Shown piece after piece: positions 1-11,144 of a stretch of 11,144 nucleotides of DNA. A program made the position numbers and the translations under genes. Source of the stretch: a virus; the IMG/VR virus record IMGVR_UViG_3300027863_000702, positions 1-11,144 of that record. One strand, given 5' to 3'. The notes below the pieces were generated by a model. That model had not been told where the DNA came from. It searched no databases and was given only the letters and a program-made list of their open reading frames with translations. Numbering within the stretch: the stretch's first letter is position 1; every line of letters begins with the position of its first letter.

Positions 1-127
1 GGATTAAAAGATGATGATTTTGTTGATGGATATGAACAGATTTAAGTTATTCGGTTTACCGAAAGTCTTAAAAAGTTCGGTTAACTGCTTTAATGCATGG
101 TTAACGAAGCAGAATTAAGAGACCGAA
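1..127. repeat. Terminal direct repeat, copy 1 (identical to 11018-11144). Circularisation overlap or terminal redundancy.
   Basis: Base-by-base comparison of 1-127 with 11018-11144 shows 127/127 identity. It contains the last 45 nt of CDS 10646-11062, a promoter, and the first 31 nt of CDS 97-483. Confidence 0.97.
50..81 (+). promoter_or_regulatory. Class-A archaeal-type BRE/TATA promoter (ACCGAAAGTCTTAAAAAG, 58-75) embedded in TTCGGT/ACCGAA/TTCGGT inverted repeats
   Basis: ACCGAAA starts 39 nt upstream of the ATG at 97. The same motif recurs at 1622, 2526 and 10343 at 38 nt from an ATG. The hexamers TTCGGT (50-55), ACCGAA (58-63) and TTCGGT (76-81) bracket the TATA element. Confidence 0.6.
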
Positions 128-483
128 AAGACGACCCTGTAGATTTCTATTGTGCTGATGGAACAGGCATAGCAAAAGGAACGCTTCTTAAATTAAGTGA
201 CGCAAGAGTTGTTTCAGCAGCGGACAGCGAAGGTTGTGTATGCGCTGGAATTGCAGCAAGGGAAAAAGTAGCTAATGATGGCAGAACAAGAATTGCAGTT
301 TATCAGCAAGGCATTTTTGACATGGTAGCAAGCGGGGCTATTGCAGTAGGATCTAAGCTTATAGCCGCAGGTACTAACAATCAAGTTAAAGCAGGGAATG
401 CTCAATCTGGAGCGGCTGTAATTGGCTACGCCTTAGAGACCGCAACAGACGGAGAAAGAATACAAGTGAGGTTAATGTTATAA
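97..483 (+). CDS. Head decoration/cement-like protein (DUF2190-like), 128 aa
   Basis: Small beta-rich protein located directly upstream of the capsid gene. Its pattern GTLLKLS...GIAAREKV..G.RIAVYQQGIFDM...AI.VGSKL...G..NQV......AVIGYALE.A.DGE.IQVRLM resembles the DUF2190 / phage head-decoration family. A leaderless-type promoter lies upstream. Confidence 0.6.
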   Translation: MVNEAELRDRKDDPVDFYCADGTGIAKGTLLKLSDARVVSAADSEGCVCAGIAAREKVANDGRTRIAVYQQGIFDMVASGAIAVGSKLIAAGTNNQVKAGNAQSGAAVIGYALETATDGERIQVRLML

Positions 484-484
484 A

Positions 485-1342
485 ATGGCATCAGGAGTAG
501 AAACCAACGAGATAAGAGGCCTTGACATAGACAAGGCGGTAAAGGGCTTCGCCTTAAGAGAATATAACTTCTTAGAGGAATGTTTAGTCTCGGCTATGTC
601 TGGAGACAGCCTAAGATGGTATCAAGAAACAGCAAGCGACTTAACTGCTACAACACCAACAGACCTTAATGTTTCACCACTCAGCAGTTTTCCATATTTG
701 GAGGTAACTTGGACAAGGCAAACGAGCTATGTCCAGAAATATGCAGCAGAAGGGTTTATTTCTTTAGAAGACGCAAAAAGCGCGGATATTGATGTAGTCA
801 CAAGAACATTACTCAGACTTACAAGAGCAGTTATTAAAAAAAGGGACATTGCAATTTATTCAGTCTTCCAAGGAGCAAGCAACAGCTTTGCCGTCACAAG
901 CATAGGCGGGGCAACATGGGACGCGGTAAGCGGACAAGACCCAATTAAAGACCTTCTACATGCACAATATCTTATTAGCAGCCAAGATTATGACGCAAGA
1001 GGAGCCTCGCTCTTACTCAATCCTTATGACTACAAAAGCTTAATAACATGGCTTATTTCCTCTAAAGGAACTTATTTCACAGGATTCAGTAGTGATACTT
1101 TGCAATCGGGAAGAGTTTTAGAAATTTTGGGCCTGAGAATAAAAGTTTCTAATAATGTAACAGCTGGAGAGGCTATTGTTATAGTTCCTCAAAGGGCAGT
1201 AACATGGAAAGAATTCACGCCTATTACTGCGAGAACTATTGAAGAAGTTGGAATAGGCTATAAAATAAGGGTATGGTGTTTGGGAGTTGCTATAATGACT
1301 GACCCTTATGCTGCATGCAGATTAACCAATCTAAAGACCTAA
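485..1342 (+). CDS. Major capsid protein, HK97-fold candidate (285 aa, no delta domain)
   Basis: The size matches a mature HK97-type MCP. It sits immediately after the decoration gene (stop 483, ATG 485, GAGGT SD upstream). A long helix-like segment DVVTRTLLRLTRAVIKKRDIAIY and a LLLNPYDYKSL segment are typical of the family. Gene order is scaffold-like, then decoration, then MCP. Confidence 0.7.
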   Translation: MASGVETNEIRGLDIDKAVKGFALREYNFLEECLVSAMSGDSLRWYQETASDLTATTPTDLNVSPLSSFPYLEVTWTRQTSYVQKYAAEGFISLEDAKSADIDVVTRTLLRLTRAVIKKRDIAIYSVFQGASNSFAVTSIGGATWDAVSGQDPIKDLLHAQYLISSQDYDARGASLLLNPYDYKSLITWLISSKGTYFTGFSSDTLQSGRVLEILGLRIKVSNNVTAGEAIVIVPQRAVTWKEFTPITARTIEEVGIGYKIRVWCLGVAIMTDPYAACRLTNLKT

Positions 1343-1343
1343 A

Positions 1344-1469
1344 ATGGTTTATGAAAAAGTGTATTTGTTTAATACAGAAATTGAAAGAGATAATTTTGAG
1401 AAAGAAGTAGAGGAAAAAGTTTTAAAAAAACCTGTAATAATAGAAAATGATGAGGGAGGTATAGTTTAA
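1344..1469 (+). CDS. Small acidic hypothetical protein, 41 aa (not in ORF track)
   Basis: Hand translation gives MVYEKVYLFNTEIERDNFEKEVEEKVLKKPVIIENDEGGIV. The start is 1 nt after the MCP stop, and its stop overlaps the next start (TAATG). It fills an otherwise empty gap in a tightly packed operon. Confidence 0.45.
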   Translation: MVYEKVYLFNTEIERDNFEKEVEEKVLKKPVIIENDEGGIV

Positions 1470-1633
1470 TGGCTGCTGGAGATGTTGAAGTGAGAATTGT
1501 AAAAGCAACGGCTGATTTAGTAGATACTGCCCTAACTCAAATGAGAGCAACAGCTGGCCCTAATGGAAAATATGGCATGGTGTCAATCCAAAACGGCCAA
1601 TATATTCTTATTTGGGCTATAACCGAAACTTAA
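1469..1633 (+). CDS. Small structural-module protein, 54 aa. Domain-less paralog of the LamG protein's N and C termini (not in ORF track).
   Basis: Hand translation gives MAAGDVEVRIVKATADLVDTALTQMRATAGPNGKYGMVSIQNGQYILIWAITET. GGAGGT SD at 1455-1460. The N-terminus MAAGDVEV matches MAVGDVQV of CDS 1660-2526, and the tail resembles that protein's C-terminus. Confidence 0.6.
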   Translation: MAAGDVEVRIVKATADLVDTALTQMRATAGPNGKYGMVSIQNGQYILIWAITET

Positions 1634-1637
1634 ATAA
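1622..1637 (+). promoter_or_regulatory. Class-A BRE/TATA promoter (ACCGAAACTTAAATAA) for the LamG gene
   Basis: ACCGAAA starts exactly 38 nt upstream of the ATG at 1660. There is no SD in between, which is consistent with a leaderless mRNA. Confidence 0.6.
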
Positions 1638-1659
1638 ACTTTGATTTTTTCTCTAATTT

Positions 1660-2526: not shown

Positions 2527-2542
2527 CCGAAAGATTTAAATA
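2526..2542 (+). promoter_or_regulatory. Class-A BRE/TATA promoter (ACCGAAAGATTTAAATA)
   Basis: ACCGAAA starts 38 nt upstream of the ATG at 2564. It overlaps the stop codon of the LamG gene. Confidence 0.6.
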
Positions 2543-2563
2543 TTAGTGTGTGCTTTATCTTCT

Positions 2564-2773
2564 ATGGAAACTCAAGTAATCAAACAAGAAAAACCTAACT
2601 CATGGGAATTTGGAAAAGCGGCGAACCGCTTTAAGATATATTTTGATACTCCAACGGACTTAAAAGAAACAATTAAAGCCTTACATAAAGAAGGGTTTTT
2701 AAAGGACTTTGATGAGCTTATGAAAGATATTGAAGTGTTATCGAAAGTAAAGGAGCGGCAAGATGAATATTAA
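2564..2773 (+). CDS. Hypothetical small protein (69 aa from ATG 2564; the ORF track starts at GTG 2546)
   Basis: Open frame with plausible protein composition. I prefer ATG 2564 because it lies at the conserved 38-nt spacing from the class-A promoter. The next gene overlaps its end. Confidence 0.6.
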   Translation: METQVIKQEKPNSWEFGKAANRFKIYFDTPTDLKETIKALHKEGFLKDFDELMKDIEVLSKVKERQDEY

Positions 2774-3131
2774 AGGAAAAATTGAGAAAATCGGAAGCAG
2801 ACAAGGAAAAACACAATTTGGTAAAAGTTATACCTTATACGAAATTTACATTAATGGAAAAAAATACACTTTCTTTAATGAGCAATTTTTAAATGGGTTA
2901 GATGTTGGGGATTATGTTGAGGTTTCTCTAGAAAAGAAGGGCCTATATAATGAAGTCCAAAATATTGTTAAAATAACCAAAGAGGAAGCTGAAAAGGCGG
3001 CGGAAAACGAACCTAAAAATAAAACAGCTTATGAAATAAACGAACTTCTCAAATTAATTTTAGCTGAGCTAAAAGAATTAAATCAAACAACAAAAACAAC
3101 ATGGGTGAAAGTGCAAGATGGCAAACCTTAA
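2763..3131 (+). CDS. Hypothetical protein, possible OB-fold nucleic-acid-binding N-domain plus helical C-tail (122 aa)
   Basis: AGGAG SD upstream. The N-terminal beta-rich pattern MNIKGKIEKIGS..G......Y.L.EI.INGKKY......GL.VGDYVEVSL.KKG.YN.V is reminiscent of OB folds. This fold guess is weak. Confidence 0.55.
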   Translation: MNIKGKIEKIGSRQGKTQFGKSYTLYEIYINGKKYTFFNEQFLNGLDVGDYVEVSLEKKGLYNEVQNIVKITKEEAEKAAENEPKNKTAYEINELLKLILAELKELNQTTKTTWVKVQDGKP

Positions 3132-3342
3132 ACAACGAACTCAAAAAATTGAATGGTTAAAGGGCGTAATAGCCGCTTTTAATGAGAAATATCCTTTAAA
3201 ACCAATGTCAAAAGATAAACTTATCGCGGAATTTTGCTTAACCTTTAACTCAACTGAAAGAACGGCTAAAGAATGTCTTAAAATATTGGCCAACACCGGC
3301 TTTATAATACTGGACAAAAAAGAGGTGCAAAAAAGATGCTGA
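3118..3342 (+). CDS. Small winged-helix-like DNA-binding protein (74 aa)
   Basis: The C-terminal pattern STERTAKECLKILANTGFIILDKKEV looks like a recognition helix followed by a beta wing. It overlaps the preceding gene by 14 nt. Confidence 0.6.
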   Translation: MANLKQRTQKIEWLKGVIAAFNEKYPLKPMSKDKLIAEFCLTFNSTERTAKECLKILANTGFIILDKKEVQKRC

Positions 3343-3515
3343 AGTATAGGCCTCTTACAATAAGGCAACTGGTGGACCTTATTTTATCGTTGGAAATACT
3401 TCATTTCTTTTTTGATGTAATTTTATGAACATTTGTGTCAATTTTTCTACAGAAGCTTATCTGCAGTTAATTTTATTATTGCTGCTTTTCTTGATTTTCT
3501 ACGAGGTGTATAAAA

Positions 3516-3692
3516 ATGTTAGAAAATGAGGAATTAGGCCTAAAGGTTGCGGAAAATGAGGAAGAGGCCTTTTGGCAAGAAATCATAGACAGCACAAAAA
3601 AAGACATTGAACGCCTTGAAAAACTTTTAAAATTCAATAAAGCGGTGTTAGAATTAGCCGAAAATAAAATAAATGCCATACAGAAAAATTAG
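3516..3692 (+). CDS. Small acidic coiled-coil protein, 58 aa (not in ORF track)
   Basis: Hand translation gives MLENEELGLKVAENEEEAFWQEIIDSTKKDIERLEKLLKFNKAVLELAENKINAIQKN. AGGTG SD lies 8 nt upstream. The listed antisense ORF 3476-3679 has S/F-rich shadow-like composition. Confidence 0.55.
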   Translation: MLENEELGLKVAENEEEAFWQEIIDSTKKDIERLEKLLKFNKAVLELAENKINAIQKN

Positions 3693-3849
3693 ACATTGCA
3701 TAAGCTGCGGTAAGCTTTTGGGCCGTTCTTCAAAAATATATTGCTCTCGTTGCCTCATGAAAAAAAACCGCTGGAAAAAGAACGATGACTTACATAAATA
3801 TTTCTCCGTCTTTGATTTCAATAAGGCCTGCTTTTTCGAATGTTTCTAA
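3673..3849 (+). CDS. Zinc-ribbon miniprotein B, 58 aa (CxxC-N10-CxxC). Paralog of 5498-5629 (not in ORF track).
   Basis: Hand translation gives MPYRKIRHCISCGKLLGRSSKIYCSRCLMKKNRWKKNDDLHKYFSVFDFNKACFFECF. It shares R..C..CGK...Y.C..C....WKKN with the other zinc-ribbon ORF. No clear SD. The last 60 nt overlap the convergent gene 3790-4002. Confidence 0.4.
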   Translation: MPYRKIRHCISCGKLLGRSSKIYCSRCLMKKNRWKKNDDLHKYFSVFDFNKACFFECF

Positions 3850-4002
3850 TTGTTCCTTGACTTCTTTTATTTTAACCCCTACATTAACCGCTATTTGGGC
3901 CGCTAAACTCTCAAAATTAGCCCTTTTATCTTCTGCCTGCTTTATGCTGTCAATTATTCGCCATATGGCCTTATTTATTCTCTCAGTTTTGCTTTGATAC
4001 AT
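3790..4002 (-). CDS. Small winged-helix-like DNA-binding protein (70 aa)
   Basis: Helical N-part, then LAAQIAVNVGVKIKEVKEQLETFEKAGLIEIKDGEI, which looks like a wHTH recognition helix plus wing. It is coupled to the upstream RHH gene (2-nt gap) with a GGAGG SD. Confidence 0.6.
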   Translation of the reverse strand: MYQSKTERINKAIWRIIDSIKQAEDKRANFESLAAQIAVNVGVKIKEVKEQLETFEKAGLIEIKDGEIFM

Positions 4003-4004
4003 CT

Positions 4005-4421
4005 TTATTCACCTCCTTTCATCTTTTGGTATTCTTTAAAGGCATTAAGAACTTGTTCATAAGTTATGTTGTATTTGAAATAGAGGTTTTTGTATCGGTT
4101 TAGCAAGCTTTGTTCGGTTAATGAAGGAAAAGAGCGAAAATCCTCTAAAATTTCATTTGGTAAGTCTCTAAATACTTCTCTCATTTGTTCTTTTTTCTTT
4201 TTAATTATTTCAAGCGCTTCTAAGGTCTGTTTTAACTCCAATTCTTTCTCAGCTATTTCTTTTTTCAAAGTTATTACATTCTGCTCCAAATCTTTCTCTT
4301 TTAAATCATCTCCAGACAAAAAGAAGTTTTTCAATAATTTTTCAATTAAAGCTGATGTATTGGTTTCTTTTAATTTGTTTATTAATTGTTCATCTAAATA
4401 GATAGTTGTTATTTTTTTCAT
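4005..4421 (-). CDS. Ribbon-helix-helix (CopG/Arc/MetJ-like) transcriptional regulator with long coiled-coil C-domain (138 aa)
   Basis: The N-terminus KKITTIYLDEQLINKLKETNTSALIEKLLKNFF fits a beta-strand/helix/helix RHH pattern. It is the first gene of the only minus-strand operon and diverges from the non-coding control region. Confidence 0.65.
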   Translation of the reverse strand: MKKITTIYLDEQLINKLKETNTSALIEKLLKNFFLSGDDLKEKDLEQNVITLKKEIAEKELELKQTLEALEIIKKKKEQMREVFRDLPNEILEDFRSFPSLTEQSLLNRYKNLYFKYNITYEQVLNAFKEYQKMKGGE

Positions 4422-4444
4422 GTCTAAATAAGTGTGTGTGTTTG

Positions 4445-4459
4445 TATTTATAAATATTT
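4445..4459 (-). promoter_or_regulatory. Class-B TATA promoter for the minus-strand RHH operon (minus strand reads AAATATTTATAAATACAAACACACAC...ATG)
   Basis: TTTATAAATA ends 23 nt upstream of the ATG at 4421, with no SD. It shares TATAAATACA followed by a CA/CG alternating tract with the promoter at 5135. Confidence 0.55.
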
Positions 4460-4476
4460 CTATTTTCTATTATATA

Positions 4477-4617
4477 TTTTTTTTATTTTTTTTTATTTTT
4501 TTATTTTTTTAGGCTATTTTATTTTTACAAAAAATTATTTATTTAATAAATAAATAAATAGGATTTTGATTAATGTTAATTCCTTAAAAAAAATAAAAAA
4601 AGAAAAAATAAAAAAAA
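4477..4617. repeat. A/T-tract inverted repeat around a 23-nt palindrome. Putative replication origin / DNA-unwinding element.
   Basis: T8-A-T9-A-T7-A-T7 (4477-4510) is mirrored by A8-T-A7-G-A6-T-A8 (4586-4617). The perfect palindrome TTATTTATTTA-A-TAAATAAATAA (4535-4557) lies between them. No ORF is present. Confidence 0.5.
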
Positions 4618-4675
4618 TTTCCCTTTCTGAGAACCCTTAATTTGCGCATTATTTTTTTTGTTTTTGGGTATTAAC

Positions 4676-4736
4676 GCGCCTCGCAGGCCACTTTATCCGG
4701 CATATCTAAAGATATGCCTGTGGCCATGCTCGGCGC
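4676..4736. other. 61-nt composite GC-rich hairpin (hairpin 0)
   Basis: Pairings: GCGCC (4676-4680) with GGCGC (4732-4736); GCA with TGC; GGCCAC (4686-4691) with GTGGCC (4720-4725); GGCATATCT (4699-4707) with AGATATGCC (4710-4718). Confidence 0.6.
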
Positions 4737-4828
4737 TAATAAGCCTTATAAAGCCCATATATGAGGTTTTTAGGCTTTTTGGCTTTTTTGAATTTTATGA
4801 TTTTTTTGGATGGTTTTTAGGGGGACTT

Positions 4829-4883
4829 AGGCTTTTTGCGAAAAAAGAGGGGGTTAGGGGGTGAATTTTTTCGCAAAAAGCCT
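4829..4883. other. Hairpin 1: perfect 18-bp AT-rich stem with 19-nt loop GAGGGGGTTAGGGGGTGAA
   Basis: AGGCTTTTTGCGAAAAAA (4829-4846) is the exact reverse complement of TTTTTTCGCAAAAAGCCT (4866-4883). The loop at 4847-4865 is identical to the loop of hairpin 3. Confidence 0.85.
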
Positions 4884-4928
4884 TTATAAGCCGTAAAAAT
4901 GCAATATAAGGGGGTTTTGGTATGTTAC

Positions 4929-4979
4929 GCCAAAGCCCCGGAATAACAAAGGGGGTTTAAAGATGTCCGGGGCTTTGGC
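4929..4979. other. Hairpin 2: perfect 14-bp stem with 23-nt loop containing AAGGGGGTTT
   Basis: GCCAAAGCCCCGGA (4929-4942) is the exact reverse complement of TCCGGGGCTTTGGC (4966-4979). The loop is ATAACAAAGGGGGTTTAAAGATG. Confidence 0.85.
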
Positions 4980-4984
4980 AATAA

Positions 4985-5025
4985 CCCCGGCGCAAGAGGG
5001 GGTTAGGGGGTGAATTGCGCCGGGG
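4985..5025. other. Hairpin 3: perfect 11-bp GC-rich stem with the same 19-nt loop GAGGGGGTTAGGGGGTGAA
   Basis: CCCCGGCGCAA (4985-4995) is the exact reverse complement of TTGCGCCGGGG (5015-5025). The loop is at 4996-5014. Confidence 0.85.
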
Positions 5026-5040
5026 GCTATTTTGGCCTAA

Positions 5041-5098
5041 AAGGAGCGGAGCGAAGCGGAGCGACGAAGCAAGGGGGGGAAGGAAAGGATAGGGGGGT
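5041..5098 (+). repeat. Purine-rich block with a tandem 10-mer AGCGGAGCGA x2 (5045-5064), a G7 tract (5073-5079) and a G6 tract (5092-5097)
   Basis: Read directly: AAGGAGCGGAGCGAAGCGGAGCGACGAAGCAAGGGGGGGAAGGAAAGGATAGGGGGG. Apart from its C residues, the + strand contains only a single pyrimidine (one T). Confidence 0.8.
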
Positions 5099-5134
5099 CC
5101 TCACGGACAAATTTTTTAAAAATAAAAACAAAAA

Positions 5135-5150
5135 GTATAAATACACGCAC
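5135..5150 (+). promoter_or_regulatory. Class-B TATA promoter (GTATAAATACACGCAC) for the HNH-terminase-portal operon
   Basis: TATAAATA ends 29 nt upstream of the ATG at 5173. It shares TATAAATACA plus an alternating CA/CG tract with the divergent promoter at 4445. The spacing is slightly longer than in class A, implying a short leader. Confidence 0.45.
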
Positions 5151-5172
5151 ATATTAAATAAATAAACCAAAA

Positions 5173-5526
5173 ATGAAAGAAAAAAGAGACGACATAACAC
5201 CAGATTACAGAATTAGACGAGAATTAAGAATGCTGTGGCTAAAATCACGAGAAAGAAGCGCAGCATTAAAAAGAGCTAAATATTGCTGTGAAATCTGCGG
5301 CGTTAAAAGAAGCGAAGCAAAAGGAAAAGAACAACCTATAGAAGTACATCATAAAGAAGGAATTGAAAATTGGGACAAAGTGATAAAAACAATAAGAGAA
5401 GAGATATTATGCGAACCAGAGAAGTTAATTTGCGTATGCCCAAGATGTCATCAAAAACTTCATAACAAAAAGCTAACTTATGAGGACTTAATAAAAAATG
5501 AAGGCAATAAGGAACAGGTTTTGTAA
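5173..5526 (+). CDS. HNH endonuclease (117 aa), packaging-associated
   Basis: CCEICG ... IEVHHKEG ... CVCPRCHQKLHN gives two CxxC pairs flanking the HH / H..LH beta-beta-alpha-metal core. It lies directly upstream of the large terminase, as in cos-type HK97-like phages. Confidence 0.85.
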   Translation: MKEKRDDITPDYRIRRELRMLWLKSRERSAALKRAKYCCEICGVKRSEAKGKEQPIEVHHKEGIENWDKVIKTIREEILCEPEKLICVCPRCHQKLHNKKLTYEDLIKNEGNKEQVL

Positions 5527-5629
5527 AAGATGCGGTAAAATATTCCAAGCAAGAACAAAATATAGCTATATATGCCCTAATTGCCAAAAACCAAGAGGTT
5601 ATACAGCGTGGAAAAAAAATAAAAAATGA
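5498..5629 (+). CDS. Zinc-ribbon miniprotein A, 43 aa (CxxC-N12-CxxC), between HNH and TerL. Possible DNA-recognition (small-terminase-like) factor (not in ORF track).
   Basis: Hand translation, verified codon by codon: MKAIRNRFCKRCGKIFQARTKYSYICPNCQKPRGYTAWKKNKK. GAGGA lies upstream. The start overlaps the HNH 3' end by 29 nt. The stop TGA overlaps the TerL ATG (ATGA at 5626-5629). Confidence 0.6.
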   Translation: MKAIRNRFCKRCGKIFQARTKYSYICPNCQKPRGYTAWKKNKK

Positions 5630-6906
5630 TTGGGAACATTAAACTTGATGATTGGCAAGAAAAAATTGTTAATTTAGGATTAACAGGCAATAAAAACATA
5701 GCAATAAGAGCAGGGCGGCAGGTTGGAAAATCAACAGCCATAGCGGTTTTAGCTGGAGAATTTGCGGTTAAAAACGAAGATAAGGTTATAATGATTATTT
5801 CAGCTGTAGAGAGGCAAGCCTTTTTGCTTTTTGAGAAGGTTTTAGAGTTTATTGACGATAGATATAGCCAGATGGTTACATGGGGAAAGAATAAGCCGAC
5901 CAAAAGCCAGCTAACCTTAAAAAACGGCTCAAGAATATATTGTTTGCCGACAGGATTAGACGGCTACGGAATAAGAGGCTATACAATAGACCTTCTTATA
6001 GCTGATGAAGCAGCGTATATAAACGATGATGTTTTTAATGCCATAACGCCTTCTTTAGCAGCCAGAAAAAACGCGAAAATTGTTCTTTTATCAACGCCGT
6101 TCGGCAGAGAGGGCTATTTTGCAAGAGCATTTAACGACCCAACTTTTGAAACATTTCACATAACAAGCGAAGAATGCAGCAGAATTAACAAGGAATTTTT
6201 AGAGCAAGAAAAAAAGAGAATGACGAAAAGGCAATATATGCAGGAATATTTAGGAGAGTTTATAGATGAATTATTGCAGTGGTTTCCAGATCAGCTTATA
6301 AAAGAATGCATGAAACGAAAGCGACCAGAAAAAATAAACAAAAATGAAAATTACTTTTTAGGGGTTGATTTGGCCAGAATGGGCAAAGATGAGACAACCT
6401 TCGAAATTGGATTTTTAGCAGAAAATAAGAGAATAATCCAAGTTGAGAACCTTATAACGAGGAGGACAAGATTAAACGAAAGCGCAAAAATGATTTTAGA
6501 GCTTGATAAGATTTATAACTTTAGGAAAATATACATAGATGATGAAGGAATAGGAGTTGGAGTTTATGATTTCCTTTTGGAAAATGAACAAGTTAGAAGA
6601 AAGTTAACAGCCATTAATAATTCTAAACGTGTTTTGGACTTGGAGGGAACATCAAGAGTTAAAATCTTGAAAGAGGACCTATATAATAATCTTTTAAGGC
6701 TTATGGAAACAGGACAAATAGAACTTTTAGATGACCCTGAAATATTTCAAAGCCTGAAAAGCGTTCAATATGACTATACAACGGACAGCTTAGGGAGAAG
6801 TCACCTTAAGATATTTGGTAATTACACACACATCGCAGAAGGGCTTATAAGATTGGGTTGGTGTATTAAAGAAAAAGGTTTAAATATTTGGGTTAAGTCA
6901 ATATAG
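5626..6906 (+). CDS. terL: Terminase large subunit (426 aa)
   Basis: Walker A is AGRQVGKST. Walker B is IDLLIADEAAY. The coupling motif is LLSTPFG. The C-terminal RNase-H-like nuclease shows acidic motifs FLGVDLARMGKDETT and IYIDDEGIGVG. Confidence 0.9.
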   Translation: MIGNIKLDDWQEKIVNLGLTGNKNIAIRAGRQVGKSTAIAVLAGEFAVKNEDKVIMIISAVERQAFLLFEKVLEFIDDRYSQMVTWGKNKPTKSQLTLKNGSRIYCLPTGLDGYGIRGYTIDLLIADEAAYINDDVFNAITPSLAARKNAKIVLLSTPFGREGYFARAFNDPTFETFHITSEECSRINKEFLEQEKKRMTKRQYMQEYLGEFIDELLQWFPDQLIKECMKRKRPEKINKNENYFLGVDLARMGKDETTFEIGFLAENKRIIQVENLITRRTRLNESAKMILELDKIYNFRKIYIDDEGIGVGVYDFLLENEQVRRKLTAINNSKRVLDLEGTSRVKILKEDLYNNLLRLMETGQIELLDDPEIFQSLKSVQYDYTTDSLGRSHLKIFGNYTHIAEGLIRLGWCIKEKGLNIWVKSI

Positions 6907-6907
6907 T

Positions 6908-7270
6908 ATGACTGAAACCTTATGCGACAGCGGAGCAGTTAAGATAAAAGCAGGAGCAAATGCCGCAACATTAACCGCTGCGCAATACACGGACATCATA
7001 AACAGGGCTGAAGGCTTTGTATGTGCAGCCGCAAGATACGACTTTATAACAAATTACAGCAATATATCCACTATAGGGAAGAATTTTTTAAAAGACGTTA
7101 CGAGCTCTAAAGCGGCCATAGAGGTTATAAATTATGACATGTCAGGCTTTACATCACGAACTGAGGCGCAGGTTATGCTTGATGTTAATTACAATATATT
7201 AGTTGACGGAATAAACTTATTAAGAGACGAGAAATTTAGAAGCTTTATAATAAGCGGAGAGGTGGCATAA
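6908..7270 (+). CDS. Hypothetical structural protein (120 aa), possibly a gp6-like head-tail adaptor/connector
   Basis: The start is 1 nt after the TerL stop and the stop overlaps the next ATG (TAATG). The size and the AQYTDIINRAEGFV...Y segment are loosely reminiscent of head-tail connector proteins. The functional call is weak. Confidence 0.5.
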   Translation: MTETLCDSGAVKIKAGANAATLTAAQYTDIINRAEGFVCAAARYDFITNYSNISTIGKNFLKDVTSSKAAIEVINYDMSGFTSRTEAQVMLDVNYNILVDGINLLRDEKFRSFIISGEVA

Positions 7271-7920
7271 TGGCTGATTTGATGAAAAAAAAGAGCTTTT
7301 TAAGAAGCGGAGAAGGCGCAATAGCGAGCTATAACTATGAAGACATAGCTTCAGGCAGCGGAGTTATTGTTTTTTACGCTTTAGAAGCGAGTACATCAAC
7401 AAACGGCTCAAACGAGCAAGCAAAATATTTTTTAACAACTGAGAGAATTAAATCTAAAGACTATTACACGCAGTATACAATACCGGGCGGAAATTGGTGT
7501 AAATTTTGCGAATTTTCATTTGATAGTTTGCCTTTTAATACAAAAAGAATTTTAAACGGAAGGTGTTATTTTTCGCCATTGTTCAAAATTGATACCAATG
7601 AGTTAAGTGTTTATGCAACTATTACTCTTATAAAATATTCTAATTCAACAGAGGAAATTTTAGGAAGTGTTCAAAGCGGAGTAATAGCAGGGGGGGGCAA
7701 GTATAAAAGGCCTACAACTTATTTAGACATTTCAAATGTAGTTTTTAAAAAAGGGGATCTATTAAGAATAAAATTTGAAGGGTATGGCCACTATGGTGGC
7801 GGGTCGGCTTCTGCATGGTTTTATTATGATGGATACGGCAGAGGATTACCGGCAGATATAGAAGGAAACACAGAAACAGCAGACAGCATATTTTACATAC
7901 CTTTTAAAATAGATGTATAA
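7270..7920 (+). CDS. Beta-rich hypothetical virion protein (216 aa). Candidate vertex/tail-stub or receptor-binding protein.
   Basis: GAGGTGG SD. Aromatic/Gly-rich beta-type composition with no recognisable family. It sits between TerL and portal and contains a G8 homopolymer at 7690-7697. Confidence 0.55.
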   Translation: MADLMKKKSFLRSGEGAIASYNYEDIASGSGVIVFYALEASTSTNGSNEQAKYFLTTERIKSKDYYTQYTIPGGNWCKFCEFSFDSLPFNTKRILNGRCYFSPLFKIDTNELSVYATITLIKYSNSTEEILGSVQSGVIAGGGKYKRPTTYLDISNVVFKKGDLLRIKFEGYGHYGGGSASAWFYYDGYGRGLPADIEGNTETADSIFYIPFKIDV

Positions 7921-7926
7921 AACAAA

Positions 7927-9012
7927 ATGACAGAATTAGATGTAACAAAAGCAAGCGCAACAAACATTTATAGCGGAAGCGATTGGAATATTGAGGAATA
8001 CGAGACAGAGGCGCAGAGTTTAGAGCATGGCGAAGCCGACGAGGTCGTTGTAACATTCCCTAAGGCAGCCGAATATTTTGGGTATTATAAAAAGTATGGC
8101 CAGTTAAAGAAGGCTATTGACACACTCTGGTTGTATGTTGTGGGAAAAGGTTATGAAGTAGACCCTGAAACTAAAGTGATTTTAGAGCATATAACTGGAT
8201 TTGGGGAGGACACTTTTGTATCGATTTTGTGGAATATGGGGGTGGTGTCAATGATACAGGGCGACGCCTTCGCTGAAATTGTGAGAGATGACAAAACAGG
8301 AAAACTCATAAATTTAAAGCCTATAAGTCCAGAAAGAATGAGAATAATTTATGGCTCTAACGGACTTATAAAAAGATATGAGCAGGTTACCAAAGACAAA
8401 ATAATAAAATGGAACAAAGAAGAAATATTTCACATAAGAAACGACGCAATAGCTGATGAACAAAGAGGAACTTCAGTTATTGAAAGCTGTAAATGGGTTA
8501 TTGACGCCATAGAGGAAGCAAGGAGAGATTATAGGATAGTTCTACATAGAAACGTCGTACCTTTGAGAATTATTGAGATTGATACGGACGACACGGCAAA
8601 AAGAAATAGCTTGATGCAGGAATACAAAGATGCCATACAAAAAGGTGAGGTTTTAGTTATTCCAAAGGGAACCGTTCAAGTAACAGAAACGGCAATAAAT
8701 GTTCAAGACCCTTTAGGTTGGATACAGAGTTTAGAGAATTACTTTTATTTGGCTGTAGGCATACCGAAAACAATAGCCAACCCTGAAGGAGTAAGCGAGG
8801 GAACCTCTAAAATAGGTTATCTGATTTTTGAGCCAATTTATAGCTTCAGGCAGACTTTAATGGAAGCTGATATTTGGAACCAGCTTTATTTCAGGATTAA
8901 ATTCAACAGGCCGGCCTCTTTAGTGGACAACATAACAACTAATGAGGCAAAAAATACCAGTCAATTAGGCTTCCAACCTAAGGACCTATATGTAAATTTA
9001 AACAGGGAGTAA
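7927..9012 (+). CDS. Portal protein (361 aa)
   Basis: The size and position are in the packaging operon. The segment GEDTFVSILWNMGVVSMIQGDAFAEIVRDDKTGKLINLKPISPERMRIIYGSNGLIKRYEQ resembles the conserved N-terminal region of HK97/SPP1-type portals. An acidic-rich central helix region follows. Confidence 0.75.
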   Translation: MTELDVTKASATNIYSGSDWNIEEYETEAQSLEHGEADEVVVTFPKAAEYFGYYKKYGQLKKAIDTLWLYVVGKGYEVDPETKVILEHITGFGEDTFVSILWNMGVVSMIQGDAFAEIVRDDKTGKLINLKPISPERMRIIYGSNGLIKRYEQVTKDKIIKWNKEEIFHIRNDAIADEQRGTSVIESCKWVIDAIEEARRDYRIVLHRNVVPLRIIEIDTDDTAKRNSLMQEYKDAIQKGEVLVIPKGTVQVTETAINVQDPLGWIQSLENYFYLAVGIPKTIANPEGVSEGTSKIGYLIFEPIYSFRQTLMEADIWNQLYFRIKFNRPASLVDNITTNEAKNTSQLGFQPKDLYVNLNRE

Positions 9013-9016
9013 AAAA

Positions 9017-10159
9017 ATGGCTTTATCAAAAAAGAAAAAACAAACAACCGCAACAGACCAACAGCAACAGCCTCAGCAGCAACCGCAAATAGCCTTTATA
9101 GGTAAAGAAATGCCAGCGTGGCAAAAGGCGCAGCAACAGCAACAGCAGCCACAACAGCCGCAAGCAGTTATAGGCGCAGGCCAGCCTGCAAACCTGCAAC
9201 AATTAAGCGAACTTTATAGCAATTACTTAAATCAACAGAAAGAACAGCAAAAACCAAAATATCTACAAAAAGGCGGTTATGTTGACAGCTCAACAGGAGA
9301 ATATATTCCACCTAAAAATATAACAAAAGTGAAGTTTAACGATGACGGAACAATAGATTACACGCCAAAAGGGACTGATGAAACAATTAGGTTGACAAAA
9401 GAGGAATACGGGGCATTAATTGGAGATAAAGGAGAAACAAAAACAACCGACAAAGTCTTAAAAATTAAATATCTTGAAAGCCCAGAATATCAGCAAGATT
9501 TGCTAAACCAACAACAGCAACAGGAGAAGGAAAGATATTTAAATGCCCTAAAAAGCCAGCAACAAATAAAACCTGAAATGCTTGATTTGTTGGCTGCAGA
9601 GAAAGGATTAGAGTTAAAAGACAATGTTGTTCAAAAGGTCACTTCTGTAGGCGCAGGTATAGGCGGAGCCATGGCGGGCGCTAAAACAGGGGCAACTATT
9701 GGGTCTGTTATAGGGCCAGAGGGGGCAGCTGTTGGGGGGGTTATAGGTGGTGTTGTTGGTGGTGTCGCAGGCTTTATTGTAAAGACGGGATTTGACCAAA
9801 GACAAAACACCAAAAATTCCTTTAAAGTTTATTCAGCCGCAAAACAAAACCAAAATTTCATATTATCTCAGGTGAGACAAGGGACAATCTCACCAGAACA
9901 AGCTCAGCAATTATGGGACGAACAGAAAATTAACCTTCTTATTGCAGAGAGAAATTTAAAGAAGTTAACTCAAACAGACTTAGACAAATTTTTATCTAAT
10001 GCAGGCGACGAGCTTATAACAATAGAAACCTACATGCAAAGACAGCCTTATATGGACGATATCTTTGCGCAAGAATTAGCAGGCATTCCAGCTAAAAACC
10101 CAAATAATATTTACCCAGAACTAAATTATGTAGATTTAGACGACTATGAGCCAGAATAA
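9017..10159 (+). CDS. Poly-Q / glycine-zipper protein (380 aa). Candidate internal virion, ejection or membrane-inserting protein.
   Basis: GGGAG SD. There are three Q-rich tracts (QQQQPQQQPQ, QQQQQQPQQPQ, QQQQQE). A roughly 50-aa GxxxG-rich hydrophobic segment reads VGAGIGGAMAGAKTGATIGSVIGPEGAAVGGVIGGVVGGVAGFIV. The C-terminus is helical. Confidence 0.7.
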   Translation: MALSKKKKQTTATDQQQQPQQQPQIAFIGKEMPAWQKAQQQQQQPQQPQAVIGAGQPANLQQLSELYSNYLNQQKEQQKPKYLQKGGYVDSSTGEYIPPKNITKVKFNDDGTIDYTPKGTDETIRLTKEEYGALIGDKGETKTTDKVLKIKYLESPEYQQDLLNQQQQQEKERYLNALKSQQQIKPEMLDLLAAEKGLELKDNVVQKVTSVGAGIGGAMAGAKTGATIGSVIGPEGAAVGGVIGGVVGGVAGFIVKTGFDQRQNTKNSFKVYSAAKQNQNFILSQVRQGTISPEQAQQLWDEQKINLLIAERNLKKLTQTDLDKFLSNAGDELITIETYMQRQPYMDDIFAQELAGIPAKNPNNIYPELNYVDLDDYEPE

Positions 10160-10388
10160 AGATTTACACTTTTTATTGATTGTTTTGAGAAATAGCCTCA
10201 TATTAGGCGGTTTATATTTTGTTTCTGTTTTTGCGACGATGGAACTCTCTTATGAAACCTGCAAGCCAGTAATTATTTTTATTTTATCTTACATCTTCAC
10301 AGAATTAGCCAGACATTATAAGTTAAGCCTCAGGACAACAGAACCGAAAGATATAAAAAGACACACAACCTTATTTTACTATGGCTGA
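10146..10388 (+). CDS. Small membrane protein with two predicted TM helices (80 aa), possibly holin-like
   Basis: Hydrophobic stretches LHFLLIVLRNSLILGGLYFVSVFA and PVIIFILSYIFTELA are followed by a basic C-tail. It overlaps the preceding gene by 14 nt. Confidence 0.5.
   Translation: MSQNKDLHFLLIVLRNSLILGGLYFVSVFATMELSYETCKPVIIFILSYIFTELARHYKLSLRTTEPKDIKRHTTLFYYG
10343..10359 (+). promoter_or_regulatory. Class-A BRE/TATA promoter (ACCGAAAGATATAAAAA), internal to the 3' end of CDS 10146-10388
   Basis: ACCGAAA starts exactly 38 nt upstream of the ATG at 10381. It is followed by ACACACA, like the other promoters. Confidence 0.55.
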
Positions 10389-10644
10389 TGAGAAAAAGCA
10401 AGAGGAAAAACCTATAGAAAACGAAAGGCCTGATTTAATAAATGATGCTTTAATAGCCGCAGAGACTTTAAAAAGAGAAAATGAGAGAATGGAGCAGAAC
10501 ATTAAACAGCTTCAGGAATTAAAGGCATGGGAAATGTTAGGGGGAAAAAGCAGGGGAAAAGAGCCAGAGGAAAAGCCTCAGGAAATAGACCATAAAACTT
10601 ATGCGGAACTTCTTTTAAAAGGAATAATTCCACAGAAAACTTAA
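10381..10644 (+). CDS. Scaffolding-like protein (87 aa, highly charged, coiled coil)
   Basis: E/K-rich helical sequence (ETLKRENERMEQNIKQLQELKAWE). It lies upstream of the decoration and MCP genes once the circle is closed. The MCP lacks a delta domain, so a separate scaffold is expected. Confidence 0.5.
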   Translation: MADEKKQEEKPIENERPDLINDALIAAETLKRENERMEQNIKQLQELKAWEMLGGKSRGKEPEEKPQEIDHKTYAELLLKGIIPQKT

Positions 10645-10645
10645 A

Positions 10646-11062
10646 ATGGAGTTATATGTTATTGCCGGCGGACAGATGGATAGCCTTAACCGATGGCAAC
10701 AAGACTTAAATTCTGTTTTTTTGCCCATTTATAAAAACGGAAAAAAGGTAAAATATGAGGAAGGTGGATTAACGCATAGGCGGTTATTGGTTGCTCCTGT
10801 TCAGCTGTTCAAAATATGCTTCCCTAAAGAAGAGCTTGAAAATGTGATGTCTATGGTTTGCCCGACGGATTATATAGAAAAAAAATATAGTGTAATAAGA
10901 AAAAGCATAATGTTTTTAAGGAAAATTTTGCGCCTAAAAAAAGCTCCAGAACCTAAATATTTAAATCCTTTTCTACAGCCTAATCAAGTAGATAAAGCTG
11001 TTTTTGTTGTACCTATAGGATTAAAAGATGATGATTTTGTTGATGGATATGAACAGATTTAA
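10646..11062 (+). CDS. Hypothetical protein (138 aa), head-module position. The last 45 nt are duplicated at 1-45.
   Basis: The open frame starts 1 nt after the previous stop. I recognise no family. Confidence 0.55.
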   Translation: MELYVIAGGQMDSLNRWQQDLNSVFLPIYKNGKKVKYEEGGLTHRRLLVAPVQLFKICFPKEELENVMSMVCPTDYIEKKYSVIRKSIMFLRKILRLKKAPEPKYLNPFLQPNQVDKAVFVVPIGLKDDDFVDGYEQI

Positions 11063-11144
11063 GTTATTCGGTTTACCGAAAGTCTTAAAAAGTTCGGTTA
11101 ACTGCTTTAATGCATGGTTAACGAAGCAGAATTAAGAGACCGAA
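11018..11144. repeat. Terminal direct repeat, copy 2 (identical to 1-127)
   Basis: Same as copy 1. The repeat begins inside CDS 10646-11062 and ends 31 nt into a second copy of the 97-483 gene. Confidence 0.97.

Follow-up and report, generated by a model that had tools for sequence, protein, structure and literature searches.

The stretch of viral DNA analysed here (the window; 11,144 nucleotides, positions 1 to 11,144 of IMG/VR record IMGVR_UViG_3300027863_000702) is a complete 11.0-kb circular genome, not a piece of a larger one. This closed unit encodes an HK97-fold major capsid protein (MCP), a cement protein, a portal protein and the large terminase subunit (TerL). Its size is at or below the smallest known for viruses of this head-and-portal type, and it represents an apparently undescribed family of very small, probably archaeal viruses with a capsid, a packaging machine and a likely neck adaptor, and with no recognisable tail, protease or replication genes. 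The reading that we favour, with a probability of roughly 0.6, is that of an autonomous minimal archaeal virus which has a stubby tail made of novel proteins and leaves replication wholly to its host.

A closed genome and its relatives

The first and the last 127 nt of the window are identical (1-127 and 11018-11144), and this terminal direct repeat closes a unit of 11,017 bp with a GC content of 35.9%. It must be noted that 127 nt is a k-mer length used by assemblers, thus the overlap by itself proves merely a cycle in the assembly graph. The end-to-start junction is also spanned colinearly by contigs L109 and L110, which come from separate ENA MEGAHIT assemblies (99.95% and 99.2% identity, respectively), and with these two independent crossings the 11,017-bp circle proposed in an earlier note on this sequence stands. 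The gene count given there, about 25, was slightly too high, we find 22-23 credible genes. No tRNAs and no Rfam matches were found in the window. The unit is smaller than the 11.6 kb cited as the minimum for tailed phages, represented by Salmonella phage astrithr, and for the satellite P4 (Aguilar et al., bioRxiv 10.1101/2025.06.18.659913), in agreement with its earlier placing at or below the lower limit of tailed viruses.

IMG/VR contains at least 194 related loci, none of them above about 12.9 kb except one contig of 21.4 kb. This contig was rejected as a larger family genome, it is an assembly join of two variants. The longest contigs of the 344 homologous MCP clusters pile up at 11.4-12.8 kb. 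Twelve genomes, among which that of the window is the smallest, have terminal overlaps that close them at 11.0-12.6 kb, and some of these are distant members (31-35% MCP identity); that relatives down to 31% identity still close at this size tells against the window being a fragment, which would have undone the earlier interpretation. The core gene order is TerL, g16, g17, portal, a low-complexity protein, g21, (g22), cement protein, MCP, small ORFs and a variable adhesin. The family is large, and its size and synteny are strictly conserved. Megablast with the window gave no matches, and in 50,697 GenBank phage records tblastn gave no match to the portal protein or to the products of 6908-7270 and 7270-7920. 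Judged from these searches, no deposited or described family appears to be close, and the earlier view of the genome was not overturned by matches to a known one.

Head and packaging genes

Coordinates refer to the plus strand unless indicated otherwise. The cement or decoration protein (128 aa, 97-483; PF09956 Phage_cement_2, E 6e-10) is a core gene, present in 80 of 81 loci. It is followed by the HK97-fold MCP (285 aa, 485-1342; PF25209, 4.5e-12; phrog_1650, 2.5e-23), which lacks a delta domain and has its closest named matches in Arthrobacter phages (24% identity). The nearest named relative of TerL (426 aa, 5626-6906; phrog_2, 4.8e-46; PF03237, 1e-15) is that of Halogranum tailed virus 1 (HGTV-1; 31% identity, 92% coverage, 1e-50), the next-best named matches being in Meiothermus and Thermus phages (2e-33). 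The portal protein (361 aa, 7927-9012) matched PF04860 (5e-12), PF06074 (1.6e-9) and phrog_12 (2.7e-13). The HNH endonuclease (117 aa, 5173-5526), recognised through PHROG HNH families (phrog_3106, 6e-8), is accessory and not core (2 of 27 genomes, one other locus only); relatives bear SNase or ERCC4 nucleases in its place. Pfam or PHROGs matches thus confirmed the HNH, TerL, portal, decoration protein and MCP assignments previously made from the sequence alone, as well as that of the LamG protein described below. No window ORF had a Pfam or PHROGs match to a prohead protease.

A very basic 43-aa ORF (5498-5629, pI 10.5) overlaps the TerL start; that it encodes a minimal, small-terminase-like DNA binder is speculative, and no homologues were found. 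The charged 87-aa protein g21, leaderless and preceded by a BRE/TATA element (10345-10359; feature 10345-10644), is a candidate scaffolding protein. It has no family matches; family g21 occurs between the portal module and the cement-MCP pair in 21 of 27 genomes.

Small ORFs and the control region

The MCP gene is followed by two short ORFs of 41 and 54 aa (1344-1633) without family matches, and small ORFs are kept at this position across the family (clusters C16, C23 and C7). A leaderless 69-aa gene (2528-2773, ATG at 2564), lying behind a BRE/TATA element at 2528-2541, agrees with a 69-aa JGI gene call. The basic 122-aa protein encoded at 2763-3131 (cluster C15, 6 genomes) has only a weak HAS-barrel match (E 0.019), and may be a DNA-binding protein of the small beta-barrel or OB-like kind. 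Three small early or regulatory ORFs, a basic one of 74 aa and two of 58 aa, occupy 3118-3849; one of the 58-aa products is coiled-coil-like and conserved in 27 of 81 loci, the other has a CxxC...CxxC zinc ribbon. A divergent pair on the minus strand (3790-4421) encodes a 70-aa winged-helix and a 138-aa coiled-coil protein, with weak matches to wHTH and replisome-organiser N-terminal profiles (phrog_379, 1.3e-4; phrog_5968, 4e-4; PF01726, 0.0026); a TATA-like TTTATAAATA can be read about 23 nt ahead of the ATG at 4421.

The adjacent 751-nt non-coding control region (4422-5172) contains a poly-T/poly-A inverted repeat (4476-4618) and hairpins with z-scores of -4.8, -3.9 and -5.4. Two hairpins (4836-4876 and 4985-5025) differ in their stems and carry the identical 19-nt loop GAGGGGGTTAGGGGGTGAA, a third one (4929-4979) is located between them. 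In relatives G5-N3-G5 motifs are found upstream of TerL, and the largest gap of a genome sits 0-700 nt before TerL in about 12 cases out of 26. We consider the region a candidate origin and/or packaging site. A basic 138-aa protein of unknown function (10646-11062), kept in roughly half of the family, had no PDB, PHROG or Pfam matches. None of the window ORFs matched an integrase, Rep, polymerase, primase or helicase in Pfam or PHROGs, and a replicase is absent throughout the family.

Neck, tail and delivery candidates

Searches of Pfam and PHROGs gave no tail tube, sheath or baseplate match for any window ORF, no tail protein family was detected in the window and 27 relatives, and no window protein could be assigned to a tail tube, nozzle, fibre or plug. 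Nor were genes for lysis or egress identified. HMM and structure searches did not bring up a normal set of tail or replication genes, which would have undone the earlier interpretation.

The core protein g16 (120 aa, 6908-7270; family of 678 representatives) is an acidic five-helix bundle in its AF2 model (pLDDT 96.4). Its top BFVD match reached a TM of 0.80 (E 1.8e-3), the named ones were head-to-tail adaptors, connectors and Mu gp36 (TM 0.50-0.55), and the structural matches include one HGTV-1 protein (R4T6L7, TM 0.46). The natural PDB proteins with the best TM were the P74-26 neck and the JBD30 connector, and the top PHROG over 60 members was phrog_541, head-tail adaptor (E 0.0056 in 3 of the 60). 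The matches are convergent and individually non-significant (Foldseek E 0.4-4 for the named ones); g16 is probably a head-tail adaptor. A tail-borrowing satellite would likewise retain such a protein.

The neighbouring g17 (216 aa, 7270-7920) was modelled on a 14-sequence alignment (AF2 pLDDT 84) as a jelly-roll beta-sandwich whose N-terminal arm is disordered; a C-terminal PFKID motif is conserved. Foldseek found merely a generic jelly-roll, galactose-binding-like or TNF-like fold, and there were no homologues in PHROG, Pfam, PDB or GenBank phages. One relative has a PD40/WD40 beta-propeller protein at this position. We regard g17 as a candidate distal neck or tail-tip protein.

The low-complexity poly-Q protein (380 aa, 9017-10159) has a glycine-zipper hydrophobic segment at about aa 214-260, supported by Gly-zipper Pfam matches and by hydropathy. 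Its PHROG matches to tape-measure, tail-lysin and internal virion proteins are restricted to aa 190-280, and matches of the tape-measure type occur in the window only on this glycine-zipper segment. The gene has a conserved position and a hypervariable sequence (16% mean column identity). It may encode an internal, ejection or tape-measure-like protein, roles which it fits better than that of a scaffold. The LamG/concanavalin-like protein (288 aa, 1660-2526; PF13385, 1.2e-18) is a putative receptor-binding or adhesin protein. The locus behind the MCP is hypervariable, in relatives it holds proteins of 170-850 aa with LamG, lectin, PKD or BclA_C domains. LamG-type domains may also serve as capsid decorations instead of receptor binders. 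An 80-aa membrane protein (10146-10388; cluster C41) has a hydrophobic segment at aa 7-35.

Such a gene set could also belong to a capsid-forming satellite that depends on a larger tailed virus of archaea. The satellite would itself supply a small capsid, a portal, a terminase and an adaptor, package only its own genome, borrow pre-assembled helper tails and be replicated by helper or host, as are the bacterial cf-PICIs. A full head and packaging module with an adaptor-like connector and without recognisable tail, lysis or replication genes would suit such an element, as would the strictly conserved small-capsid size and the 11-12.6 kb length, which fits cf-PICI and P4-type satellites. The hallmarks of satellites are missing, however: there is no integrase in the window, the variable proteins from 27 genomes gave a single match to one, and replication initiator or primase and helper-sensing regulators are lacking. 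An MCP scan over 185,579 GTDB genomes found no integrated copy, and the family-level matches of a TerL scan (11 of 25 loci) were all free short contigs, none longer than 11.6 kb, and no genes other than those of the family were detected on them. Known satellites retain replication genes and borrow structural ones, whereas 71% of the 11,017-bp genome is structural or packaging. The hypervariable adhesin locus and the ejection-protein-like gene would be superfluous if helper tails were used, and no helper candidate is known. Because of the missing integrase, the lack of GTDB copies and the uniformly short TerL-matching contigs we prefer autonomy to an integrated satellite; the satellite, which the earlier note had offered as one of three readings, is not excluded but appears unlikely.

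We are more sceptical of a truly tailless HK97 virion, another of those readings, in which g16 and g17 would seal the portal vertex, the LamG adhesin would be displayed on the capsid, and delivery would proceed via the portal with the glycine-zipper protein. The lack of any detectable tail protein family, the generic jelly-roll of g17 and the position of the adhesin gene directly behind cement and MCP, like that of a head decoration gene, are compatible with it. It is weakened because g16 resembles adaptors, which join tails, and to our knowledge every characterised portal-plus-terminase virus of prokaryotes bears a tail. What separates such a virion from one with a very short podovirus tail is mostly a matter of terms, and sequence cannot decide between the two. 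The third reading, a minimal virus whose tail is not recognisable, is the one that we favour.

Promoters and host

An archaeal-type BRE+TATA promoter (CGAAAG TC TTAAAAA, 60-74) is located 37 nt before the leaderless cement ATG, and BRE+TATA elements lie 36-37 nt ahead of three window start codons. In the cement genes of relatives TTTAAATA is found at -29 in 10 of 23 cases, and at -33..-26 in 14 of 23 (0.35 expected). The leaderless starts behind BRE+TTTAAATA have neither a Shine-Dalgarno (SD) sequence nor a -35/-10 pattern; the window promoters belong to the leaderless BRE/TATA type of archaea. Eleven relatives were binned in MAGs, five of them in archaeal bins (four Woese-, Pace- or Nanoarchaeota) and six in bacterial ones (two CPR), including Saccharibacteria, Staskawiczbacteria and Bacteroidota; MAG binning is composition- and coverage-based.

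Taken together, the promoters, the affinity of TerL to a haloarchaeal virus and the DPANN bins indicate an archaeal host, and the ERCC4 nucleases of relatives add support to what the earlier note had tacitly assumed. The host is most plausibly a DPANN archaeon (Nanoarchaeota/Woesearchaeales-type), an inference that rests on MAG binning, without a CRISPR-spacer or provirus link. A bacterial phage, e.g. of CPR/Patescibacteria or Bacteroidota, is the reading that we find hardest to accept: the six bacterial bins, the Arthrobacter phage MCP matches and SD-like GGAGG motifs on internal genes are outweighed by the positional conservation of BRE+TTTAAATA, the TerL ranking, the ERCC4 nucleases and the strong over-representation of DPANN bins, and SD motifs serve operon-internal genes in archaea also.

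Discussion

If the genome is that of an autonomous minimal virus, a small capsid (T=3 or T=4, about 40-45 nm) would assemble on the portal without a protease, scaffolded by the charged 87-aa protein. TerL, which would recognise the hairpin/G-run element that precedes the packaging genes, would pack replicative DNA into it, and the portal would be capped by the adaptor-like g16. A very short podovirus-like tail may be formed by family-specific proteins, the jelly-roll protein g17 and the variable adhesin (here LamG). The glycine-zipper/poly-Q protein, packaged or attached as an ejection protein, could provide a conduit through the host envelope. In the absence of an own replication enzyme the small winged-helix, zinc-ribbon and OB-like proteins would bring the replisome of the host to the AT-rich repeat region, in the way proposed for the verdandiviruses of Asgard archaea.

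It is instructive to compare this genome with known small systems. The cf-PICIs are bacterial elements of 10-15 kb with an HK97 MCP, portal, TerL, sometimes an HNH, and head-tail connectors, but no tail. The window genome shares with them the MCP, portal, TerL, a connector-type protein and the lack of an encoded tail. They are integrated, and besides an integrase and regulators they possess a prohead protease, TerS and a replication module; the window genome showed none of these, whereas the window family has a variable adhesin gene, an ejection-protein-like gene and a host in another domain, the archaea. Astrithr (11.6 kb) and the phi29-like podoviruses are, similarly, minimal portal-containing dsDNA viruses with short tails and genomes at the lower size limit; their tail proteins are identifiable, whereas the window genome is smaller (11.0 kb) and archaeal. 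The phi29 group uses a protein-primed DNA polymerase and pRNA-dependent packaging. No sequence similarity to the smallest tailed phages was found by megablast or by tblastn against GenBank phages.

HGTV-1, a 144-kb haloarchaeal myovirus, has the closest named TerL and one protein among the structural matches of g16, but its genome is 13x larger and encodes a contractile tail and replication machinery; sequence searches detected no similarity between the MCPs or portals. The 'twilight-zone' mini HK97 genomes mined from IMG/VR, DTR-closed, HK97-MCP-encoding and <11.6 kb (Aguilar et al., bioRxiv 10.1101/2025.06.18.659913), are likewise small and closed, with tail genes rarely detectable. Their defined clade, from human gut, differs: its genomes, about 8.9 kb, have an integrase, RepA or helicase and encapsulin-like MCPs and no portal or terminase, whereas the window family has portal, TerL and adaptor and lacks integrase and Rep.

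Verdandiviruses, tailed viruses of Asgard archaea (Medvedeva et al., bioRxiv 10.1101/2021.07.29.453957), have genomes of about 19-23 kb. The window genome is about half that size and lacks a major tail protein, a recognisable tape measure and a baseplate hub, its likely host is DPANN and not Asgard, and its MCP belongs to PF25209, whereas the VerdaV2 MCP is of the encapsulin type only according to Aguilar et al. The likenesses are several: both are small archaeal HK97 viruses assembled as circles, with a capsid-stabilising protein gene directly upstream of the MCP, arrays of small genes of low conservation, among them HTH and Zn-finger regulators, structural proteins with adhesin domains, and variable host-recognition modules. 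Both encode TerL and portal and no replication or transcription enzymes, and in this respect the verdandiviruses provide a precedent for replication without own enzymes (bioRxiv 10.1101/2021.07.29.453957).

Genome unit and gene content

The terminal 127 nt are identical at both ends of the window, leaving a unit of 11,017 bp with 35.9% GC. Since assemblers typically work with k-mers of 127 nt, the overlap on its own shows merely a cycle in the assembly graph. The end-to-start junction is also crossed colinearly by two contigs from separate ENA MEGAHIT assemblies (L109, 99.95% identity; L110, 99.2%), thus the unit length is real and the molecule either circular, circularly permuted or concatemeric. 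The closure at 11,017 bp claimed in an earlier note on this DNA is supported by both the exact repeat and these contigs, while the gene number given there, about 25, was somewhat too high: 22-23 could be counted as credible. Virion and packaging genes, computed from their coordinates, occupy ~71% of the genome (7.85 kb). Neither tRNA genes nor Rfam matches were found in the window by tRNA and Rfam searches.

One start codon deserves mention. The longest ORF at 2546-2773 starts with GTG at 2546, whereas a BRE/TATA element at 2528-2541 predicts a leaderless ATG start at 2564 (69 aa). The latter was also chosen by the independent JGI gene call, and the GTG start is probably wrong.

A JGI scaffold of 8,711 bp (L108, from 3300005573) is 99.4% identical to the window and lacks 1,570 bp (window 6366-7935). 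The gap removes the C-terminal half of TerL and the two ORFs that follow it, g16 and g17, and creates an in-frame TerL-portal fusion ORF of 602 aa. This scaffold, which contains an N-gap across the AT-rich region, must be either a defective variant with a deletion or an artefact of scaffolding.

The functions that had been named from the sequence were all borne out by Pfam or PHROG matches. The genes, all on the + strand, encode a cement (decoration) protein at 97-483 (PF09956, 6e-10), an HK97-fold major capsid protein (MCP) at 485-1342 (PF25209, 4.5e-12; phrog_1650, 2.5e-23), a LamG protein at 1660-2526 (PF13385, 1e-18), an HNH protein at 5173-5526 (PHROG HNH families, 6e-8), TerL at 5626-6906 (phrog_2, 4.8e-46; PF03237, 1e-15; a weak Terminase_6C match) and the portal at 7927-9012 (PF04860, 5e-12; PF06074, 1.6e-9; phrog_12, 2.7e-13). 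With an HK97-fold MCP, a portal and a large terminase the window has the head and packaging features of Caudoviricetes. The reported lack of a recognisable tail tube, sheath, baseplate, protease, integrase or replication family also holds, as no such family was matched by any window ORF. Pfam/PHROG scans did not find TerS in the window genome, or a prohead protease anywhere in the family.

A family of small genomes with conserved gene order

The MCP homologues formed 344 clusters at 90% identity, and their longest contigs were concentrated at 11.4-12.8 kb. IMG/VR contains at least 194 relatives; the 80 loci listed of these are all 12.9 kb or shorter save one of 21.4 kb. This exceptional contig (IMGVR_UViG_3300028920_000300, 21,422 bp, with loci L082 and L072) comprises ~1.8 units, two diverged variants arranged head-to-tail, and carries a 218-bp repeat (98.6%) with a period of 11,831 bp. 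The joining of two variants through the repeat rules it out as a larger genome or an integrated copy. The join also reveals co-occurrence of strains and cautions against taking long contigs for larger genomes.

Assembler-type terminal overlaps were present in 11 further genomes, giving 12 closed units of 11.0-12.6 kb, the smallest of which is the window. Two distant relatives with 31-35% MCP identity (L087 and L092) close at 11.2 and 11.4 kb. With even distant relatives closing within this range, the possibility raised in the earlier note, that the contig is a fragment of a larger genome, was not upheld.

The conserved gene order is TerL, g16, sometimes a SNase-like nuclease, g17, portal, a low-complexity protein of 300-500 aa, g21 (~87 aa), g22 (a ~140-aa protein present in about half of the genomes), cement and MCP. 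Downstream of the MCP gene there are small ORFs, at least one hypervariable large protein, and then, in a variable block, small genes of either strand. The SNase-like endonuclease (cluster C13; PF00565, 1.4e-9; phrog_452, 2.7e-17) lies between g16 and g17, within the neck gene block, in 7 of 27 genomes (L029, L044, L054, L058, L075, L076 and L077). An ERCC4 nuclease was found in two of the 27, and the HNH gene, also in two, does not belong to the core, which excludes cos packaging dependent on HNH as a trait of the family. The nuclease appears to be an accessory function that can be exchanged, filled by HNH in the window and by SNase or ERCC4 elsewhere.

Candidate neck, tail and scaffold proteins

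The best candidate for a head-tail adaptor is g16 (6908-7270, 120 aa), whose family comprises 678 representatives at 50% identity in an exhaustive representative search. Its predicted fold is an acidic five-helix bundle (pLDDT 96.4). The highest TM-scores with natural proteins in the PDB were 0.46 (P74-26 neck) and 0.41 (JBD30 connector), with E-values that were not significant. Among predicted viral structures the top match reached TM 0.80 (E 1.8e-3), and the named matches, at TM 0.50-0.55, were head-to-tail adaptors, head-tail connectors and Mu gp36. The commonest PHROG among 60 members was phrog_541, 'head-tail adaptor' (3/60, best E 0.0056). A search of the PDB with the sequence profile gave nothing meaningful. 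These matches are individually weak; because they converge, g16 is probably a head-tail adaptor. In some members (L029 5013-5882; P0225, P0232, P0235, P0244, P0148) an N-terminal beta-rich domain of ~170 aa with a GQSFTxG motif is fused to the g16 part, and in P0148 the domain is duplicated in tandem. That this extension might be a fused g17 was ruled out by hhalign (probability 0.2%).

The structure model of g17 (7270-7920, 216 aa, a length typical of the family) was based on the 14 sequences obtained by a profile search. It shows a jelly-roll sandwich (pLDDT 84); conserved parts are the N-terminal arm, which is disordered, and a PFKID motif at the C-terminus. The folds matched by Foldseek were all generic (jelly-roll, galactose-binding-like, TNF-like), and none resembled a tail tube. 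No relatives of g17 were found in PHROGs, Pfam, PDB sequences or GenBank phages, and profile searches of the PDB with g17 and with g22 (10646-11062, 138 aa) yielded nothing meaningful. In one relative (L077, 2553-3386) the g17 position, between nuclease and portal, is taken by a 277-aa PD40/WD40 beta-propeller; beta-propellers are typical of podovirus nozzle proteins.

The poly-Q protein (9017-10159, 380 aa) contains a glycine-zipper hydrophobic segment (aa 214-260), to which all its matches to tape-measure, tail-lysin and internal-virion-protein PHROGs are limited. Its position is kept across the family and its sequence is extremely divergent. Such a pattern is characteristic of proteins for ejection or of the tape-measure-like type, and not of scaffolds. 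The best scaffold candidate is g21, the 87-aa charged protein encoded in 10345-10644, a choice that follows from position and composition only.

The locus behind the MCP gene is hypervariable and encodes adhesion domains (LamG in six cases, lectin-like, PKD, BclA_C), a pattern that is the signature of receptor-binding proteins. In relatives, a module of ~50 aa (cluster C7, G-T-x-E-L-x-T-x-Y-P-x-T-x-G-L-x-A-G-T-T-K-Q-T-G) lies between the MCP and the variable large protein (for example L041 7897-8061, L072 11483-11632 and L054 7408-8019), in some genomes forming the C-terminal end of a 200-aa protein. The module, which was not detectable in the window, may anchor the variable adhesins. A domain shared by the 54-aa ORF of the window and the LamG protein was considered and found no support, only the first 8 residues matching (E 0.45).

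When 74 family members of g17, g21, g22 and the small ORFs were compared with PHROG and Pfam, only the SNase nuclease cluster was recovered. The evidence for a portal-attached tail consists of the adaptor-like g16 with its converging weak matches; searches for families of tube, nozzle, fibre or baseplate proteins came up empty.

Host

At three sites of the window the sequence CGAAAG is followed after 1-2 nt by a TATA-like box, 36-37 nt ahead of the ATG codons at 97, 2564 and 10381. The genes starting there have no Shine-Dalgarno sequence, which is present at operon-internal genes. In the family, TTTAAATA (at most one mismatch) starts between -33 and -26 of the cement gene in 14 of 23 cases, exactly at -29 in 10, the expected number being ~0.35, and purine tracts of the GAAAG or GAAAAG type stand before the box. 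A BRE/TATA element ~25 nt upstream of the transcription start, combined with leaderless first genes, is the promoter architecture of archaea, and the predicted promoters of the window and its family are of this kind.

The best named relative of TerL is that of the haloarchaeal virus HGTV-1 (1e-50), followed by those of Meiothermus and Thermus phages (2e-33). The protein pI values in the window, which bear on the question of a halophilic host, are not acid-shifted. We count the ERCC4 nucleases of relatives as further support for an archaeal host. Five of 11 MAG-binned relatives are in archaeal bins, four of them Woesearchaeota, Pacearchaeota or Nanoarchaeota, lineages that make up only a small percentage of GTDB species. 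The archaeal host assumed in the earlier note agrees with the promoters, the TerL relative, the ERCC4 nucleases and the bins, all of which are indirect, and we regard it as highly probable. A DPANN host in particular, for which binning is the sole basis, we rate lower for that reason, at about even odds. A bacterial host, a question separate from that of the tail, is very improbable in the face of the same evidence.

Replication, lifestyle and the nature of the virus

The window contains a non-coding region of 751 nt with a poly-T/poly-A inverted repeat (4476-4618; 33-nt arms 88% complementary, up to 67-nt arms at 72%), which sits between divergent gene blocks and is a candidate DNA-unwinding element or origin. 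Two hairpins (4836-4876 and 4985-5025) have different 11-bp stems and an identical 19-nt loop, GAGGGGGTTAGGGGGTGAA, and between them lies a third with a 14-bp stem (4929-4979). Differing stems with an identical loop suggest that the set (4836-5030) may be a structured cis element, such as a pac/cos site or an origin. A nearly identical loop occurs in a hairpin of L072, and G5-N3-G5 motifs were found upstream of TerL in six relatives (L005, L035, L058, L071, L072 and L078).

A scan of 139 non-core proteins from 27 genomes identified two C-5 cytosine and one Dam DNA methylases, nucleases, CcdA-like proteins and a glycosyltransferase. These proteins gave no match to Rep, primase, polymerase, helicase, MCM or Orc, and the window none to Rep, primase, polymerase or helicase; all that the window has here are small winged-helix, zinc-ribbon and basic proteins. 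No integrated copy was found in 185,579 GTDB genomes, where a scan with an MCP pattern detected no relatives and a TerL scan gave 11 family-level matches, all in binned free contigs of at most 11.6 kb with only family genes detected. From the lack of replication enzymes in the family and of integrated copies we infer that the host replisome replicates the genome, starting at an origin within the non-coding region, and that the virus does not integrate. The Asgard verdandiviruses are a precedent: they encode no replication or transcription proteins (bioRxiv 10.1101/2021.07.29.453957). Phage_integrase was matched once (1e-17) among the variable proteins of the 27 genomes and not in the window; given this lone match, one or more members of the family may be temperate.

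The reading we favour, with a probability of about 0.6, is an autonomous minimal archaeal virus that encodes its own stubby tail and is replicated by its host. Such a virus would have a T=3 or T=4 capsid, as inferred from the 11-kb payload and the precedents of P4 and SaPI1, assembled with the aid of a scaffold and without a protease. TerL would package the genome from a site in the hairpin region; portal, g16 adaptor, g17 neck and variable adhesin would together form the stubby tail, and the glycine-zipper protein would serve as ejection conduit.

The same genes could belong to a capsid-forming satellite that borrows the tails of a helper. It would account for an adaptor kept where the tail is missing, and for capsid and packaging genes without tail genes, the latter being absent only in the sense that none is recognisable. 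However, there is no integrase, integration, TerS or protease, and no replication module or helper-responsive regulator was recognised; adhesin and ejection genes would moreover be superfluous with helper tails, and we consider a satellite rather unlikely. A truly tailless portal virus, for which the lack of any recognised tail family would need no further explanation, is still less probable, g16 being adaptor-like. It remains doubtful, although possible, that the family represents the first archaeal capsid-forming satellite or a genuinely tailless, portal-bearing HK97 virus, of 11 kb and infecting DPANN archaea; a miniature capsid with portal, terminase and adaptor would then be self-encoded, delivery would rely on a co-infecting helper or do without a tail, and all DNA replication would depend on other genomes.

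If the autonomous minimal virus is the correct reading, 11.0 kb (11.0-12.6 kb for the family) is a new lower size limit for HK97 capsid-portal-terminase viruses, with the whole virion programme contained in ~7.9 kb without protease, recognisable tail or replication enzyme. If the satellite reading were true, this would be the first capsid-forming satellite in archaea. With its hundreds of genomes and 678 adaptor-family clusters, the family offers deeply diversified natural material for the question of how little a portal-vertex apparatus can consist of, and both the conserved BRE/TATA-leaderless promoters and the hairpin/G-run cis element lend themselves to direct tests. The family would add a widespread group of viruses for archaea, probably DPANN, whose viruses are, to our knowledge, almost unknown.

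Comparison with known viruses

No nucleotide similarity to GenBank phage or archaeal-virus records was detected, nor protein similarity to the portal, g16 or g17 in these records, and the similarity of the MCP to named viruses is limited to 24% identity with Arthrobacter phages. We found no description of the family in the literature. A close match to an already described virus family, which would have spoken against the novelty claimed earlier, is thus not known from these sources.

The family is relevant to the debate on capsid evolution and on HK97 entities of small size. HK97 genomes smaller than 11.6 kb were mined by Aguilar et al., who defined a clade without portal and terminase, and with integrase and RepA (bioRxiv 10.1101/2025.06.18.659913). 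The nearest known kind is a small archaeal tailed virus of the verdandivirus type (bioRxiv 10.1101/2021.07.29.453957). A major tail protein, tape measure or baseplate hub of the Verdandiviridae type was not found in the window, apart from the glycine-zipper, tape-measure-like signal in 9017-10159. Unlike the verdandiviruses, the members of our family are half the size, have no recognisable tail proteins and possess an MCP of a different Pfam family, and we file them as a new lineage of Duplodnaviria, of family level or higher, at the lower size limit.
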